Sequence record: MT446392.1
Length of the DNA stretch: 64,000 nt
Strand: one strand, 5' to 3'
Source of the DNA: Escherichia virus TH15
A program made the translations under genes and the position numbers. The notes beneath the pieces are model-generated. The model did not search any database, had not been told where the DNA came from, and saw only the letters and a list, made by a program, of their open reading frames with translations. Of the stretch, positions 10,149 to 39,048 are shown one piece after another. Every line of letters begins with the position of its first letter. The stretch's first letter is position 1.

Positions 10149-10904
10149 ATGAATTATCTAAAAATATATGAATCTTTAATAGTATCTGCTATTAAAAGAC
10201 CTCTTACACAAGGATACACCGAAAAACATCATATTTTACCGAAATCGATGGGTGGTAATGATTCTATTGATAATTTAGTTACCCTTACCGCCCGTGAACA
10301 TTTTATTGCACACTTATTATTGGCAAGAATTTTTAAGAATCGCGAAATGTGGTCCGCTGCATATATGATGGCTTCAACAAGTCTAACTAACTCGGATAGA
10401 CATAGATGCTCGTCACATTTATATGAATTATTGCGTAAACAAGCGTCGGTATATAATTCAGGTGAAAATTCTCCAAATTGGGGAATAAAACGTTCTGAAG
10501 AAACACGATTAAAAATGTCAATTTCAAAAATGGGTATCAGGAATCCAATGTACGGTATTCCACAATGTTTGGAACACTCTCATAAAATTAGCCTTGGTGT
10601 TACCGAAGCTTTTAAAAATCCAGAAATGAAAGAACGCCACCGTCAAAGTGTTTCTGGAGAGAATAATGGGTTTTATGGAAAAAAACATTCCGAAAAAAGT
10701 TTGGAAAAACAGCGGAATACAAAACGGAAAGGATTTCCTTGGGACAATTATTTGGAATTGTACCCAATTTGGGTTTCATTAAATTGCCCCAAGCATCCAA
10801 CATTCACAAATGAACTTGTTAAATTGGGATACCCCAAAAAGAAGCTTGTTCGAATAGTGGAAGAGTTTAAAAATGAATATATTCGAAATGCTACGCATAG
10901 ATGA
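10149..10904 (+). CDS. HNH homing endonuclease
   Basis: HNH motif [31 protein letters not shown]; inserted between nudE and e. Confidence 0.8.
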
Positions 10905-18183: not shown

Positions 18184-18190
18184 TTCAAAA

Positions 18191-18216
18191 GGTCTGCCTT
18201 CGGGTGGACCTTTTTT
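18191..18216 (+). terminator. rho-independent terminator
   Basis: Stem GGTCTGCC/GGTGGACC, loop TTCG, T6. Confidence 0.6.
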
Positions 18217-18225
18217 CATTTAGGG

Positions 18226-18255
18226 GTTTACATCCTCATAAAAAGGGTGTACTAT
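18226..18255 (+). promoter_or_regulatory. T4-type early promoter
   Basis: -35 GTTTACA, 17-nt spacer, -10 TACTAT. Confidence 0.5.
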
Positions 18256-18283: not shown

Positions 18284-18487
18284 ATGAGAATTAAAAATAT
18301 CAAGATTGATGCAGTTAATACTGGTGATGAGGTTGTTATCTATCTTAATGATTATGCAATCTTTATGGACAGTGCCACTGATGAAGAAGTGGTTGAACTC
18401 TTACAGAAAGCTCCATTTGAACTGTGTGAAGAAGATGCTACTCATCTTTCATCAGCAATTTTCTCATTATCATATGTGGTGGAATAA
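18284..18487 (+). CDS. hypothetical protein
   Basis: 67-aa ORF after CTGAGGAG leader. Confidence 0.5.
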   Translation: MRIKNIKIDAVNTGDEVVIYLNDYAIFMDSATDEEVVELLQKAPFELCEEDATHLSSAIFSLSYVVE

Positions 18488-18723
18488 TGAAACTTACAAA
18501 TACCATGGTTTCATTGGAATATGAAACCAATAATCATATTCTTGAAATTAAGATATTTGATGACAGAAGCATATTTGCTGATTACAGGGGGTACAGAATC
18601 CGCTTGGAAAAGGAACAGCTTAAAGATGTTGAGCTTTTTAAAGAAACATTAAAAAGTTGCGGGTGTAAACTGAAAAATACTCAAGTCCAAGAATTAATTT
18701 CTACCATTATCAAATACTGGTGA
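18487..18723 (+). CDS. hypothetical protein
   Basis: 78-aa ORF, TAATG overlap. Confidence 0.5.
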   Translation: MKLTNTMVSLEYETNNHILEIKIFDDRSIFADYRGYRIRLEKEQLKDVELFKETLKSCGCKLKNTQVQELISTIIKYW

Positions 18724-18726
18724 TAT

Positions 18727-18909
18727 ATGATTACTTTAGAACAAATTGAAAAAATTATTAAACTCGCTCGCGATATTGAAATTGACTCATATGAACTAGC
18801 TGTTGAACATTGCGAAGGATATTCATATTCTGGGATAGAGCAGTGCAAACGTGATTTAAATGGTTCTAAAGAAAAATTAGTCGCTTATCTAAACGAGTTG
18901 AAAGCATAA
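18727..18909 (+). CDS. hypothetical protein
   Basis: 60-aa ORF. Confidence 0.5.
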   Translation: MITLEQIEKIIKLARDIEIDSYELAVEHCEGYSYSGIEQCKRDLNGSKEKLVAYLNELKA

Positions 18910-19166
18910 TGGCTGTTGGATTTGCAAAAGATGGTGCTGAACAGTTAGAGATGGAAGCGGTTGTACAAGCCGCTATCACCCATGCGAGAGCACAGGTTTC
19001 AGTTGAAAGGGAGTCTGCTAAATTCTGTTTTGACTGCGATGAAAAAATTCCTGAAGCGCGGAGACAAGCGATTAAAGGTGTGATATATTGTGTTGGTTGC
19101 CAATCAATGCATGATAAAGTTTTTAAACGTGAGCCACGTAACTGTTGGCATAGGAGCATGAGATGA
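18909..19166 (+). CDS. TraR/DksA-family C4 zinc-finger protein
   Basis: CFDCDEKIPEARRQAIKGVIYCVGCQ C4 motif. Confidence 0.6.
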   Translation: MAVGFAKDGAEQLEMEAVVQAAITHARAQVSVERESAKFCFDCDEKIPEARRQAIKGVIYCVGCQSMHDKVFKREPRNCWHRSMR

Positions 19167-19258
19167 TTTACTATCTTGAACCTTGGGCTTGGTTAATAAT
19201 GGCTGTAGGGCCTGTTTTAATTGGTTTATTCTTTTCATGGTTAGCGAGGAAACTGTAA
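19163..19258 (+). CDS. hydrophobic micro-protein (31 aa)
   Basis: ATG after TAGGAGCATGAG; single TM helix; TAATG junction to next gene; below track cutoff. Confidence 0.3.
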   Translation: MIYYLEPWAWLIMAVGPVLIGLFFSWLARKL

Positions 19259-19473
19259 TGTTATACGACCCTAGTGGTAATTCTGAAAATGGTGTGATTG
19301 TTCTGGAGCCTGAGCATCCGACTGGTGATGTATACCGTACCGTTGAAGTGTGTGAATGTAATTTCGTTGAAGGAAATACCGGTGGGATTTCCATTGAGCA
19401 AGATGATGATGTTATTTACCTGGATGCAAGCCAAGTAGAAGCTCTTTATAGTATTTTAAAACATAACCGTTAA
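19258..19473 (+). CDS. hypothetical protein
   Basis: ATG 19258 after GCGAGGAAA; track start 19183 lacks SD. Confidence 0.45.
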   Translation: MLYDPSGNSENGVIVLEPEHPTGDVYRTVEVCECNFVEGNTGGISIEQDDDVIYLDASQVEALYSILKHNR

Positions 19474-19485
19474 GAGGAAATTAAA

Positions 19486-20040
19486 ATGATTATTGAAAAA
19501 TCTGGGTTGTTTGGTGACCTGACTGCCGATGTAATTGATAATGCAATCGTGCTTAAACAAGAAGATGATACAGTCGTTTTGACCATTCAAGATATTCAGA
19601 ACCTGTACGAGTTGTCTGTTATTGATGCAGAGCAGTATATTCGAACTCGTAATCGTGTCTTTAAAATTAACGATGAAGTTGTGGCTTGGTTGTATCGAGG
19701 TGAAAATGGCTTTAATCTGGAAACCGAATGGGCTTGTTTATCCATTAAAAACCGTTCAGAATTTTTAGAGAAAATTTTTAAACTCTTCCAAGAAGAGTGT
19801 GTACCTGAGCTCGAATGGAAAATCCCCGGTTGTGATGCTATTATACATTCAAGCGAAACCTTTGAAGGTGATGAAGAAGGTGATTATAATACTGAATTCA
19901 GTGTCTACCAATATCAAGGTCGCGATATGTTATCTATCATCCAGACCCACGGTGGTGAAGCTGAAGTAGTATTCACTAAAGACGAATTAAAAGTTCTGGT
20001 AAAATACCTGAACACTGTTATCCCAACTATGAACCCTTAA
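19486..20040 (+). CDS. hypothetical protein
   Basis: 184-aa ORF after AAGAGGAAA SD. Confidence 0.6.
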   Translation: MIIEKSGLFGDLTADVIDNAIVLKQEDDTVVLTIQDIQNLYELSVIDAEQYIRTRNRVFKINDEVVAWLYRGENGFNLETEWACLSIKNRSEFLEKIFKLFQEECVPELEWKIPGCDAIIHSSETFEGDEEGDYNTEFSVYQYQGRDMLSIIQTHGGEAEVVFTKDELKVLVKYLNTVIPTMNP

Positions 20041-20050
20041 GGAAAATATT

Positions 20051-20503
20051 ATGATTATCAATACAAACTCTTGGCACGCTAAATTACACGACCGTTTTTA
20101 TGACCGTCATTCTCGACCACACTCTTTGTGTGCTTACTTCTGGAAAATTGTATGGGCCTGTTTTGTTTGTGCAGGTTTTATTGGCAGTACAGTCTTCTGC
20201 TTAACTGTTGCAGGTGCTGGTGTATTGGAGCAGTTCTTTGTATTAAGTATTCCGGTTGGTTTAGGGCTAGGGTTTATTTTAGGACTGGCTACAATGGCTA
20301 TTATTCTGGCGGTAGTATTTGGTTTAATGTATGGTCTAATGAATTTATGGTCCTGGTATGATTTACGTAAAGAAGAAAAAGAATGGGAACGAATTAAAGC
20401 TGGGCGTGAAGGCCGAGAAACTAAAGAAAACGTTTTCATTCAATATATCAAAGCTCGTAAATCTAAGATGTGCCCGGTAATCCATTTTGAGGCGAAGAAA
20501 TGA
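20051..20503 (+). CDS. hypothetical multi-pass membrane protein
   Basis: 150 aa with several hydrophobic helices. Confidence 0.55.
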   Translation: MIINTNSWHAKLHDRFYDRHSRPHSLCAYFWKIVWACFVCAGFIGSTVFCLTVAGAGVLEQFFVLSIPVGLGLGFILGLATMAIILAVVFGLMYGLMNLWSWYDLRKEEKEWERIKAGREGRETKENVFIQYIKARKSKMCPVIHFEAKK

Positions 20504-21510
20504 GAACAGTTATGAAGGGCTATTTTGGCTCACATCTTTATGGAACAAGTACTCCGGAATCTGATGTTGATTTTAAAGAAATCTTTGTTCCACACCCACG
20601 TGACATTCTGTTAGGTACGGCTATGAACCATACCAACTTGAACACGAATAATACGGCATCCAAAAACACTAAAGACGATGTTGACCACGAGCTTTATAGT
20701 CTGAAATATTTCTTTAAACTGGCGGCTGAAGGCGAAACTGTTGCTCTGGACATGATTCACACTCCGGCTAACCTGGTAGTCAAATCCGATTTACCAGATG
20801 TATGGAAGTTTATCCAAGACAACCGTTCACGGTTCTATACGACCAACATGAAAGCATATTTGGGGTACGTCCGTAAGCAAGCTTCAAAATATGGTGTTAA
20901 AGGTTCTAGACTGGCTGCTTTACGTGGTGTACTGGCAATTGTTAACCAGATTCCTGAACAGTGGGTTGACTACCAAGAAGATGGTTCGACTAAACAACGT
21001 CGCACTAAAGTTGAAGATATTAAGCATCGTCTCCCAGAGAACGAATTCTGTGAATGGGTATTCCATAACCATGAGAAAACTGGCCCTCAAACGTTTTATA
21101 CTGTTCTCGGTCGCAAATACCAAACTACTTTGTCATTAATCGAGCTTAAGCAATCTCTGAATAAACTTGATGCTGAATATGGTGAACGTGCTCGTAAGGC
21201 TGAAGCTAACGAAGGTATTGACTGGAAAGCTCTGAGCCACGCTTATCGTGCTGGATATCAGTTGAAGGAAATTTATATGACCGGTGACCTTCAATATCCT
21301 TTACGAACAGCCCCATTTATCCTTGAAATCAAACAAGGGCTACATGCTTTTAAAGATGTACAGGCTGAACTTGAAGCTATCGTTGATGAAGTCGAAACTA
21401 ATGCCATCTGGGCTGCTAAGAACGGTATGCCCGATAAGGTAGACATGAAGTTCTGGGACAAGTTTGTTGAAGAGGTATATCTTGACAACCACAATTCCTA
21501 TTATTGTTAA
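20500..21510 (+). CDS. putative nucleotidyltransferase-fold protein
   Basis: N-terminal GSHLYGTSTPESDVDF fits GS-x(9-13)-DxD nucleotidyltransferase motif; ATGA overlap with membrane gene. Confidence 0.65.
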   Translation: MRTVMKGYFGSHLYGTSTPESDVDFKEIFVPHPRDILLGTAMNHTNLNTNNTASKNTKDDVDHELYSLKYFFKLAAEGETVALDMIHTPANLVVKSDLPDVWKFIQDNRSRFYTTNMKAYLGYVRKQASKYGVKGSRLAALRGVLAIVNQIPEQWVDYQEDGSTKQRRTKVEDIKHRLPENEFCEWVFHNHEKTGPQTFYTVLGRKYQTTLSLIELKQSLNKLDAEYGERARKAEANEGIDWKALSHAYRAGYQLKEIYMTGDLQYPLRTAPFILEIKQGLHAFKDVQAELEAIVDEVETNAIWAAKNGMPDKVDMKFWDKFVEEVYLDNHNSYYC

Positions 21511-21516
21511 ATTCTA

Positions 21517-21540
21517 AGGACCCTTCGGGGTCCTTTTTTA
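21517..21540 (+). terminator. rho-independent terminator
   Basis: Stem GGACCC/GGGTCC, loop TTCG, T6. Confidence 0.65.
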
Positions 21541-21552
21541 TTTTAAAAAGTA

Positions 21553-21622: not shown

Positions 21623-21829
21623 ATGTTAGAATTAATCAAAGCTGCTGGTGAAAAAGGTCTGATGGTTAACACTCGTGACCCTGAACAACGTCAAGCATTT
21701 GGTGAGTTAAAAGCCAAAGGTCTGGTTAAAGCATCCCTTGGTATTGGTAATGCTTTGCGTGTGACTTTGACCCCTGCAGGTAAAGCAATGTTCTTCCCTA
21801 AACCATTACCAAAACGTCGTCGCAAGTGA
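21623..21829 (+). CDS. hypothetical basic protein
   Basis: 68 aa, C-terminal KRRRK. Confidence 0.5.
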   Translation: MLELIKAAGEKGLMVNTRDPEQRQAFGELKAKGLVKASLGIGNALRVTLTPAGKAMFFPKPLPKRRRK

Positions 21830-21835
21830 GGAATT

Positions 21836-22138
21836 ATGAAAAAGTATGAAATTGACATGATTGATGCATGTCTTAAATCTGCTGACCATTTTAAGTTGAA
21901 AATGCACAAGTTAAGAGGAATGGTCAAAACTCCAGAAGAGAAGAAACGTTATGCTCTGAAGGAGAAATGTAAAGCTCTTATCATGATGGATAAGATGCAA
22001 ATGGTCGCCGCAGAAGCCCACAGGACAAGAAAAGCAGAGGCCCTTGGTGTTTATATGGCTGAACAGATTCATCGCGCACAGCAAGCCGTTAAGAGCGCCT
22101 GGTTCAGTGGCAGTGATGGTGAAAGAACTTTTAATTAA
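21836..22138 (+). CDS. hypothetical protein
   Basis: 100-aa ORF after GAGGAA. Confidence 0.5.
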   Translation: MKKYEIDMIDACLKSADHFKLKMHKLRGMVKTPEEKKRYALKEKCKALIMMDKMQMVAAEAHRTRKAEALGVYMAEQIHRAQQAVKSAWFSGSDGERTFN

Positions 22139-36779: not shown

Positions 36780-36802
36780 GCCTCTTATTGAGGCTTCATT
36801 TT
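36779..36802. terminator. bidirectional terminator hairpin between convergent genes
   Basis: Stem GAGCCTC/GAGGCT(T)C with T-rich flank. Confidence 0.5.
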
Positions 36803-37501
36803 GCAGTTATCAAAATGCCAACGTTTCATATTAGCTGGTGTACCGACTACATTACAGTGTGGACACTGAATTTTGGGGTCCACCTTTTTCTTCCGGTTTG
36901 GATTGGATTTGCAGAATTGTCGGTGAGTGGATATAACACACTTTTTACCTTCAATACCACAAAATTCACAAGTTAAAATTTCATGTTTAGCTTGTTTTAA
37001 TCCTACTGAAATTTTTTGCTTTCGTTCTTCTGAAATAGTATGAACAACCTTGTTTGGACCTTTGGAACAGTTATCAAAATGCCAACGATTCATATTGCCA
37101 ACGAGACCGGTTTTTCCACAATGTGGACATTCAACTCTCGGTTTTAATTTGGCAGATTCTGACATTTTCTTTCTGGTTTCATCGGAGAAAATTTTATTTT
37201 GTTGAGCTTCCAAGTTTTTACGACGAAGCCATCCAAATAATTTGTTTTTGCTTCTGTCGGTGTTTGGTGCAGAAACTGTCATCATGCGTGCGGCATAGAC
37301 CAAAGAAGCATTATTTGGATGCATTTTGACCAACAGTTGATGACAAACGAAATGTTCCTCGGGAGTTAAATCAACAAGATTTGAAGCGTCGTCTGCCCCA
37401 CCCATACAACGGGGTATAATGTGATGACTTTCAGAGTATGTGGTTAATTTGCGATTCAATGCTCTGCTAATAAGCTTTTGGTAAATGATGTTATAATTCA
37501 T
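36785..37501 (-). CDS. HNH homing endonuclease with zinc-finger repeats
   Basis: SESHHIIPRCMGGADDASNLVDLTPEEHFVCH plus repeated CPHC...WHFDNC; start at internal ATG with AAGGG SD. Confidence 0.7.
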   Translation of the reverse strand: MNYNIIYQKLISRALNRKLTTYSESHHIIPRCMGGADDASNLVDLTPEEHFVCHQLLVKMHPNNASLVYAARMMTVSAPNTDRSKNKLFGWLRRKNLEAQQNKIFSDETRKKMSESAKLKPRVECPHCGKTGLVGNMNRWHFDNCSKGPNKVVHTISEERKQKISVGLKQAKHEILTCEFCGIEGKKCVISTHRQFCKSNPNRKKKVDPKIQCPHCNVVGTPANMKRWHFDNCKMKPQ

Positions 37502-37541
37502 ATCAGACCCTTGTTTGATACTGCAACGGATAATATTATTT

Positions 37542-37733
37542 ATGAGCAATTTTTTAACCGGGCAGCATTTACTGGCTGTCCCCGAAATTAAACGATATGT
37601 GTTAGTTAATACCTTTTCGAAAGATGAACACCTAGTTACTGAACGTGACTTACAAAACGCTTTCGGTGAAGAATATGTTAAAATAATCGCGAACAGACAC
37701 AAAGCCTGGTTCGCATATGAATACTTTGATTAA
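37542..37733 (+). CDS. hypothetical protein (uncertain)
   Basis: 63-aa ORF in divergent intergenic region; weak SD. Confidence 0.3.
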   Translation: MSNFLTGQHLLAVPEIKRYVLVNTFSKDEHLVTERDLQNAFGEEYVKIIANRHKAWFAYEYFD

Positions 37734-37756: not shown

Positions 37757-38164
37757 ATGAACAACGTAACTGCTAAAGATATCCAAGTTAAAACCATCCG
37801 CACCGACGCTAACCCACATAACCAAAACCGCATCCGTAAATCCTGGGTCCTGGCATGTGATGAAGTATCTGCCACCCGTCTGAAATCACTTCCTCAAGAA
37901 GTTAAATTTATGTTGTATGGTGTTATTGATACTGATGTATCTGATAAGTGGATTGAACTGATGCAACGTCATTACACCGAATCTCTGGCAGCTGGTGCTA
38001 AACTGGTTATCGACCGTGACGGCTCCGAACGTCTAGAAGATGATTACTGTGTTGACTTCGATGACCACCTGGTCCAAGCTGGTTCTATTATTGCTGCGCA
38101 ACTTCCAGAGTATATTGAATCTCTTCCGGAAGCTATCCGCAAACAAATGGCAGTTGTTGCGTGA
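37757..38164 (+). CDS. rpbA: RNA polymerase-binding protein RpbA-like
   Basis: Position between 46 and 45 as in T4, similar size; not sequence-verified. Confidence 0.45.
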   Translation: MNNVTAKDIQVKTIRTDANPHNQNRIRKSWVLACDEVSATRLKSLPQEVKFMLYGVIDTDVSDKWIELMQRHYTESLAAGAKLVIDRDGSERLEDDYCVDFDDHLVQAGSIIAAQLPEYIESLPEAIRKQMAVVA

Positions 38165-39048
38165 ATTTGATTTATAAAATAACCTTTATAACAAGGGAAC
38201 AAAATAACGAATTCCCTTGTTATTATATTGGTTCAAAGGTTGATGCGACATTTAACGGTCAAAATATTCTCGACAAAAATAATAAAATTTATACAGGTTC
38301 TCCGAATTCAAAATACACTAAGCTGTATAATGAATTGATTGATAGAGGTGACTATATTGTTACTATCATTGGAGAAACAAAGCAGGACCCAAGAAAAATA
38401 GAAAATATTTTTCAAATGTCAGTTAAAGCTGTAACCAATGAGAAGTACTTTAATAAAACGTATGCTCACGACCAAAGCCGGTATGATGCTCCTGGATATG
38501 CTCCATACCGAAACTTGAAAACAGGTAAAGTCGTTAAATTGCATCCATCTGAACTTACATCTGATTATGTTGGTGTTCGTAAAGACTGCTCAATTTCGGA
38601 TAAGCACATTCAAGCAATTAAAGACTTTCAAAAAGAATATTGGACTGCCGAAGCTCGACAAGCAAGGTCTATTGAAGTCAAAAATCGTTATAAAGATGCC
38701 GAGTATGCTTTAAAATTCAAAGTTATAATGAATACATCTGAAGTATACGAAAAATATTTAAAATCAATTACTGAATATTGGAATAATTCAGATAATAGAA
38801 TAAAGGCTTCAAAACGAGCAACTGAAAGAAATGCTAGTCCTGAGTTTAAAGAAAAATTTAGGAAATCCAAAGCAAGGGGAACCTGGTTGCAGTATGAAGA
38901 TGAACTTAAAACATTGTGGAATGCTTTAGGTCAACCGGGGTATATTAAGTTTAGAAAACACGCCATTGAACATGGGTTTAATGATGAAAATTATCAGGGT
39001 GCAATCCGGTCCTGGTCAAATTATTATGTTAATAGGAAAATGAAATGA
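38161..39048 (+). CDS. GIY-YIG homing endonuclease-like protein
   Basis: N-terminal IYKITFITREQNNEFPCYYIGS motif; GTG/TTG start; inserted between rpbA and 45. Confidence 0.65.
   Translation: MNLIYKITFITREQNNEFPCYYIGSKVDATFNGQNILDKNNKIYTGSPNSKYTKLYNELIDRGDYIVTIIGETKQDPRKIENIFQMSVKAVTNEKYFNKTYAHDQSRYDAPGYAPYRNLKTGKVVKLHPSELTSDYVGVRKDCSISDKHIQAIKDFQKEYWTAEARQARSIEVKNRYKDAEYALKFKVIMNTSEVYEKYLKSITEYWNNSDNRIKASKRATERNASPEFKEKFRKSKARGTWLQYEDELKTLWNALGQPGYIKFRKHAIEHGFNDENYQGAIRSWSNYYVNRKMK

Follow-up and report, generated by a model that had tools for sequence, protein, structure and literature searches.

RlaP enzymes are the closest described relatives of NrdC.11, the product of a gene at 20500-21510 (+ strand) in a 64-kb stretch of the genome of Escherichia virus TH15 (sequence record MT446392.1, 64,000 nucleotides; hereafter the window), which is the main subject of this work. 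Two members of the family from Pseudomonas, PfRlaP and PaRlaP, add one or two nucleoside monophosphates to RNA 3'-OH ends, prefer Mn2+, are inactive on DNA and protein and, given a mimic of cleaved tRNA, favour its 5' half (PMC12776372, bioRxiv, December 2025). These two enzymes partly restore the aminoacylation of a tRNA missing one anticodon-loop nucleotide, and the authors of that study propose RlaP as the antidote to ribotoxins, RloC among them, that first cut and then trim. The excision of the wobble base by RloC had been expected to impede reversal by the tRNA-repair enzymes of phages (PMC3458546). In jumbo phages, the distribution of RlaP mirrors that of RNA ligase (PMC7824862). T4 NrdC.11 has itself been assigned to RlaP, in cluster 5 of a sequence similarity network, separate from cluster 1a, which holds the assayed enzymes (PMC12776372).

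The window comes from a T4-like coliphage of the VR/Gaprivervirus type. The 2-kb region that ends with nrdC.11 is 95.7% identical at the nucleotide level to Escherichia phage TH22, 92.5-94.6% to VR26, VR25 and VR5 (Gaprivervirus) and ~83% to Dhakavirus phages, and it matches 735 phage records. It is the counterpart of the hyperplastic tk-nrdC early region of T4 and holds three + strand open reading frames (ORFs), namely ORF1 (19486-20040, 184 aa), ORF2 (20051-20503, 150 aa) and ORF3 (20500-21510, 336 aa), which are annotated in relatives as mobD.1, 'membrane protein' and nrdC.11, respectively. A first-pass annotation had recognised the three tightly packed ORFs at these very coordinates, and read them as a module in which a membrane protein and a nucleotidyltransferase (NTase) could serve signalling, modification or anti-defence. 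The ORFs and their packing were recovered in our analysis, as was the NTase; the module was not.

Identity of NrdC.11

ORF3 passes the gathering score of the Pfam RlaP family PF10127 (41.9 bits for a cut-off of 23, E 1.2e-10), with a match that spans residues 8-134 and positions 25-142 of the 249 in the profile. It also matches phrog_388 'nucleotidyltransferase' (E 1.9e-132), and PF10127 is precomputed for all homologues listed (n=120) except one fragment. The protein is identical to that of TH22 over residues 1-335, 99% identical to NrdC.11 of VR25 and VR7, 83% to that of T2 and 82%, over the full length of 336 aa in each, to that of T4. Like the T4 gene, it lies in the tk-nrdC region downstream of mobD.1, between the latter and the nrdC.10/nrdC.8 region. 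By sequence and map position, ORF3 is orthologous to NrdC.11 of T4, and we regard this gene identity as virtually certain. The first-pass annotation had named homology to a characterised T4 nrdC-region protein of known function as evidence against its proposal. There is indeed such a T4 homologue and it is filed as RlaP; that it be of known function does not hold for NrdC.11, whose label is 'RlaP of unknown function' (PMC12776372).

The family is large, with 1,547 phage records and 2,612 clusters in a collection reduced to 90% identity. Among representatives at 50% identity, 3,052 match at E ≤1e-3, of which 787 at E ≤1e-30. Many GenBank and UniRef records call the homologues 'thioredoxin', and others 'HNH homing endonuclease', 'polynucleotide kinase' or 'ArsR regulator'. 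NrdC.11 has no thioredoxin domain, and the 'thioredoxin' label presumably spread by mistake from the name nrdC.11. When the three proteins were scanned against PADLOC and NCBIfam, there was no usable match.

We also observed that the C-terminal residues ~261-320 of NrdC.11 (window positions 21280-21460) are mosaic among close orthologues. The protein of the window shares a variant block there with one of them (P0048), and partly with another (P0064), while differing from otherwise closer relatives. These alignments suggest recombination within the gene.

Catalytic motif and predicted structure

The protein starts with MRTVMKGYFGSHLYGTSTPESDVDF, in which G10 and S11 are followed after ten residues by D22-V-D24, the predicted metal-binding carboxylates of an NTase motif (20527-20571). 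Translated in all six frames, the window contains the strict pattern hG[GS]x9-13Dh[DE]h a single time, which argues that the motif is not a chance match, and the GS-x-DxD signature noticed in the first reading is therefore genuine. We aligned 71 diverse homologues (34-83% identity) and found G10, S11, G15, S21, D22, D24, Y131, K243, H247, R250, P267, K278 and G280 to be invariant, and D60, D62 and D84 to be conserved in at least 90% of the sequences. D62 (20683-20685), on the strand formed by residues 61-67, is the predicted third catalytic aspartate.

An AlphaFold2 model built from the alignment of the 71 homologues has a high confidence (predicted local distance difference test, pLDDT, of 93.7). 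It shows an NTase core (residues ~1-117), a long helix (118-149), a beta-rich insertion (~154-208; 20959-21123) where T4-like orthologues vary most, and a helical C-terminal domain (21136-21507) with a terminal helix at residues 316-335. The invariant K243, H247 and R250 lie in the latter domain, within a DWKAxSHAxR motif. Matches of the model to solved structures are all weak and all to NTases. The aminoglycoside-modifying ANT(4') comes top in Foldseek (E 5.5e-3), and 3c18, HalB, Tam41 and LinB are also found. The motif, the family profiles and these structural neighbours all identify ORF3 as a predicted NTase of the Pol-beta fold, as had been proposed from the motif.

The narrower proposal that ORF3 is cGAS/DncV-like or a minimal NTase found no support. 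Its likeness to the cGAS/DncV-like NTases of CBASS (CD-NTases) is confined to the GS...DxD motif of the Pol-beta superfamily; there is no match to Pfam SMODS or PADLOC, no CD-NTase among the listed fold matches (top 50-60) and no effector gene. Minimal NTases are proteins of ~100-150 aa, compared with the 336 aa of NrdC.11, which scores 13.8 bits with PF01909 (NTP_transf_2; cut-off 21) and 13.2 with the NCBIfam MntA model (cut-off 60), and has no HEPN neighbour. Resemblance to ANT(4')/KNTase (1kny, 6p06) is architectural, an NTase core followed by a helical substrate-binding domain, at 12% identity and template modelling (TM) scores of 0.28-0.36; neither gene context nor sequence supports it.

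Comparison with canonical RlaP

To compare NrdC.11 with canonical RlaP (PF10127, which includes PfRlaP and PaRlaP of the RtcB-RlaP-RtcA operons), we used a profile of 18 canonical sequences taken from beside bacterial NrdC.11 homologues. The two profiles align with 90.5% probability (E 1.3e-6) over ~120 N-terminal columns. In this hhalign register, G10 S11 falls on G27 S28, D22xD24 on D39xD41, D62 on the invariant D72, which is the third catalytic aspartate, and D84 on E94. The active-site triad that the first-pass annotation had suggested looking for is thus predicted to consist of D22, D24 and D62.

PfRlaP has an N-terminal NTase domain, a helical domain at the C-terminus and a last helix that packs back on the NTase domain. 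The AlphaFold2 model suggests a similar overall plan for NrdC.11, with the helical domain placed after the NTase domain, and members of the NrdC.11 clade occur in RNA-repair gene contexts. NrdC.11 is, however, ~70-80 residues longer, has an extra insertion between strands 2 and 3 of the NTase core as well as the beta-rich insertion, and its C-terminal half has no sequence alignment to the canonical form. Neither the beta insertion nor the last 127 residues matched canonical RlaP significantly, the best result (E 0.065) covering the last helix only. We had noticed by eye a K-x3-[HY]-x2-R resemblance to canonical RlaP, and dropped it for want of statistical support. Given these unmatched parts, we class NrdC.11, from its sequence, as a 'long' and divergent RlaP, which agrees with its separate cluster in the published similarity network (PMC12776372).

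RNA-repair genes beside relatives of NrdC.11

Relatives of NrdC.11 are found beside RNA-repair genes. In a viral contig (L076:4962-8176, IMGVR_UViG_3300033153_001952), the gene of a homologue with 43% identity precedes those of an RNA ligase (PF09414) and, next in line, a T4-type Pnkp (HAD_PNKP E 2e-38; PseT of VR25 E 1e-45). The three genes are head to tail and 0-1 nt apart, forming a compact RNA-repair cassette. We then analysed 80 bacterial and archaeal loci with full-length NrdC.11-type genes (33-51% identity). A canonical RlaP gene (~255-280 aa, PF10127 E down to 1e-81) lies directly 3' of the NrdC.11-type gene in 21 of them, for instance in L083:5001-6714, L119:5001-6743 and L159:5001-6784 (among loci L083-L159). 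The bacterial NrdC.11-type protein is thus a separate paralogue adjoining canonical RlaP, and the tandem arrangement suggests that the two forms may cooperate or divide labour. The neighbour sets of the 80 loci also include RtcB (4), RtcA (2), Ro60 TROVE/vWA proteins (4), Pnkp-ligase (2) and Hen1 (2). We considered whether T4 nrdC.10 could be a second RlaP mirroring the bacterial tandem, and ruled this out: it has weak matches to AAA/STAND-type NTPases only.

A candidate role on cleaved tRNA, and its alternatives

Only nrdC.11, among the three genes, can be given a mechanism. On balance, we lean towards a role in restoring nucleotides on cleaved tRNA before its religation by phage Pnkp and RNA ligases. 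By analogy with the Pseudomonas enzymes, NrdC.11 would hold two metal ions via D22, D24 and D62 and extend the 3'-OH end of a broken RNA by one or two nucleotides without a template. Its substrates would be tRNA halves whose anticodon loop had been cut and trimmed by RloC-type anticodon nucleases of the host. The extended end would then be resealed by the phage PseT (polynucleotide kinase-phosphatase), RnlA and RnlB, encoded elsewhere in the genome; in VR25, rnlB, pseT and rnlA lie at 108, 136 and 139 kb, and nrdC.11 near 49 kb. The RNA substrate, the addition of 1-2 nt and the anti-nuclease role are inferred from the two Pseudomonas RlaPs and from gene context. Viable genome-reduced T4 mutants have lost an nrdC.11-mobD.3 fragment (PMC9825161), as would be expected for a conditional counter-defence gene. 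The anti-defence function raised in the first reading is plausible in this form, as the repair of RNA cut by host nucleases, and not as that of a module.

Several observations weigh against this role. Neither PfRlaP nor PaRlaP, which provide the biochemistry, is of the NrdC.11 type. The alignment to canonical RlaP is limited to the N-terminal ~120 residues and leaves the C-terminal 200 unmatched, including the ~55-residue beta insertion, so that substrate specificity could differ. Single-sequence and profile searches of the PDB with NrdC.11 and canonical RlaP returned nothing relevant. The 64-kb window has no RNA ligase or Pnkp gene, and nrdC.11 of T4-like phages adjoins no RNA-repair gene. 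Among the distant viral loci examined, 1 out of 31 has RNA-repair neighbours, and a Pfam census of distant viral neighbourhoods was heterogeneous, with no conserved partner. Finally, the bacterial clade is commonly paired with a canonical RlaP, and T4-like coliphages have none: the 86 phage records that match canonical RlaP include no Escherichia phage and 61 Pseudomonas phages, and all 25 listed are phiKZ-like jumbo phages. The long form may thus need a partner or act differently.

A different action on RNA 3' ends seems to us unlikely, though worth keeping in mind: NrdC.11 could repair or finish the 3' CCA ends of tRNAs, whether of the phage or of the host, or mark host RNAs to be degraded or protected. 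The evidence from the RlaP family fits this equally well, and PfRlaP also labelled full-length tRNA and rRNA with little specificity for the nucleoside triphosphate (PMC12776372). The phage has its own tRNA-Met and tRNA-Arg genes (943-1226), and T4-like genomes show no linkage of nrdC.11 to a ligase. Yet the genes linked to the clade encode end-healing and sealing enzymes (RNA ligase and Pnkp, RtcB/RtcA, Pnkp/Hen1) rather than CCA or decay machinery, and the preference of PfRlaP for the cleaved-tRNA mimic's 5' half points the same way. Still less probable is the nucleotidylylation of something other than RNA, either a small molecule, as by ANT(4'), or a protein, as by the minimal NTase antitoxins, for example by AMPylating a host HEPN ribonuclease and so neutralising it. 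This would be in line with fold neighbours that include ANT(4'), LinB, AadA and MNT/HEPN complexes, with the resemblance of the C-terminal bundle of NrdC.11 to HEPN/KNTase-C domains, and with a C-terminal half that cannot be aligned to canonical RlaP.

The idea that the membrane protein and the NTase are a functional pair, be it a module for signalling, one like Hailong (an NTase with a membrane channel) or CBASS, or a phage imitation of such a module, we consider very improbable and largely refuted by the distribution of the genes. ORF2 and ORF3 overlap by ATGA in the window, and the two genes are likewise adjacent and overlapping in Dhakavirus and two T-even-like contigs (83% NrdC.11 identity), even though the membrane protein is only 30-39% identical there. 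In T4, however, the space between mobD.1 and nrdC.11 is occupied by the HNH homing endonuclease gene mobD, and the membrane gene is missing; VR26 carries the two of them, an inserted mobD separating the membrane gene from nrdC.11. We located the membrane gene in 77 IMG/VR loci with an NrdC.11 homologue: it is directly adjacent to nrdC.11 in 10, lies 0.35-2.3 kb upstream beyond intervening genes in 27 and downstream in 1, and no homologue of it was detected in the remaining 39. The co-occurrence that the first-pass annotation had proposed to check is therefore not a general one. The intervening genes belong to two families absent from the window (~180 aa and ~140 aa), unrelated to the membrane gene, and they too overlap the start of nrdC.11 by ATGA. 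The overlap is thus kept whichever family is upstream, which speaks for a compact operon architecture and not for a specific coupling. An immediate upstream neighbour with at least two hydrophobic segments was found in 10 out of 35 close viral loci, 0 out of 41 distant viral loci and 3 out of 66 bacterial loci. The 80 bacterial loci contain no homologues of the membrane protein, nor of MobD.1, the DUF7189 protein encoded upstream or the products of three downstream ORFs, and PADLOC gave no match. The membrane protein also diverges much faster than NrdC.11 (78% versus 99% identity to VR25). From these comparisons, mobD.1, the membrane gene and nrdC.11 appear to be neighbours by synteny and not a three-gene module. 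It is just as improbable that NrdC.11 acts like HalB, in this reading its nearest solved structural neighbour, and makes an oligonucleotide or a nucleotidylated product that acts through ORF2 or a Hailong-type channel of the host, as a signal mimic or an anti-defence device. The fold match to HalB (PDB 9dbh/9dbj) is only at the generic level of those to 3c18 and ANT(4'), with 12% identity and without support from sequence matches or PADLOC; HalB itself has 217 aa, is primed by a tyrosine and produces oligo-dA. The 150-aa ORF2 product, predicted to be a hairpin, does not resemble the HalB partner HalA, which forms a tetrameric channel and has a cytoplasmic crown. We rejected an assignment to Hailong, having found neither a HalB-type NTase nor a HalA-type partner. 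A milder version of this reading, in which the 'long' RlaP has a role distinct from that of the canonical one, is hinted at by the tandem pairing of the two in bacteria.

Neighbouring genes and transcription unit

ORF1 encodes an acidic protein (pI 4.3) that matches both y05I-like models, N- and C-terminal, well above their cut-offs: PF24449 with 105.5 bits (cut-off 24.9, E 2.5e-30) and PF24448 with 75.6 bits (cut-off 27, E 4e-21). With matches to phrog_1502 (E 2e-67) and, by phmmer, to T4 MobD.1 (E 2.3e-17), its sequence identifies it as the MobD.1 orthologue. The window has three homologues of the T4 MobD homing endonuclease, at 10149-10904 (+, E 8e-42), 36785-37702 (-, E 3e-19) and 38161-39048 (+, E 2e-7), none of them at the site of mobD in T4.

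The product of ORF2 is a small, phage-specific membrane protein with a pI of 9.3. It matches phrog_944 'membrane protein' (E 3e-55) and no family of Pfam, NCBIfam or PADLOC, and every homologue that carries a name is of phage origin. The first-pass annotation took it for a multi-pass membrane protein, of which the membrane location stands. Residues ~26-102 are hydrophobic, and a low-confidence AlphaFold2 model (pLDDT 66) has two long helices (26-62 and 67-119), which makes a two-helix hairpin more likely than a many-pass protein. Distant homologues vary in the membrane part and keep the N-terminal SWH and P..LCxYF and the C-terminal KARKxKxCP motifs, including two conserved cysteines and a histidine (alignment A7; loci L008-L056). 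Together with the hairpin model, these conserved tails hint at a function on a soluble face or at a metal site.

The tight packing extends beyond the three genes to eight ORFs (18284-21510), with spacings of -4 to +12 nt except for one gap of 91 nt; ORF1 and ORF2 are 10 nt apart. A Shine-Dalgarno-like sequence precedes each of the three ORFs, and minus-strand ORFs within the region have at most 101 aa and lack support. The eight ORFs are preceded by the strong intrinsic terminator of the previous transcription unit (18187-18214, +; a 12-bp stem, UUCG-type loop and T-run) and by GTTTACA-17-TACTAT (18226-18255, +), a site resembling T4 early promoters and the putative start of the unit. The strong terminator predicted after nrdC.11 was confirmed: a GGACCC-UUCG-GGGUCC stem-loop followed by a U-run (21516-21535, +; delimited as a feature at 21516-21541) folds at -14.2 kcal/mol (z = -2.8 relative to shuffled sequences). 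Together, the eight ORFs would make up an early transcription unit that the three genes close at its 3' end, an operon structure that is inferred because the promoter is a consensus match only. No MotA-type middle promoter was found within 17-22 kb.

The small ORF upstream of ORF1 in the first-pass annotation is real (19258-19473, +): it encodes a DUF7189 protein (PF23819 E 5.7e-31; phrog_4844 E 9e-40), and the match begins at the ATG at 19258, which has a Shine-Dalgarno sequence. Four genes upstream of nrdC.11 in the same early unit, an ORF of 85 aa (18909-19166, +) encodes a DksA/TraR-type C4 zinc finger (PF01258 E 3.3e-9). On the other side, the window lacks nrdC.10, which follows nrdC.11 in T4, IME08, JS98 and VR5; its place is filled by ORFs at 21623-21829 (phrog_6001) and 21836-22138 (DUF7203), and small ORFs replace it likewise in VR25, VR26 and another close relative (L004). 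In 13 out of 35 close loci, a protein of 78-93 aa with two hydrophobic segments is encoded directly 3' of nrdC.11. These loci are of a T4-like group with 64-73% identity (L010-L039, e.g. L010:6014-6268), and the window has no such gene in this position. An Rfam scan of the window found two tRNAs and nothing else; they are the + strand genes for tRNA-Met (CAT, 943-1016) and tRNA-Arg (TCT, 1151-1226).

Implications

The gene nrdC.11 is an already known and already classified member of the T4 family of genes, with two syntenic neighbours, and our finding is in this sense real but ordinary. Burroughs and Aravind reportedly suggested in 2016 that nucleotides are restored after the action of trimming anticodon nucleases (as cited in PMC12776372 and PMC7824862). 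The idea being published, the window adds no new kind of system. What it contributes is a clean annotation, the correction of a widespread mislabelling as 'thioredoxin', and observations on the gene contexts of the family. If NrdC.11 does restore the nucleotides that trimming anticodon nucleases such as RloC remove, it would be a third component, so far missing, of the classic T4 pathway of tRNA repair, alongside Pnkp and Rnl1, and would answer the long-held expectation that phage repair is defeated by excision of the wobble base.

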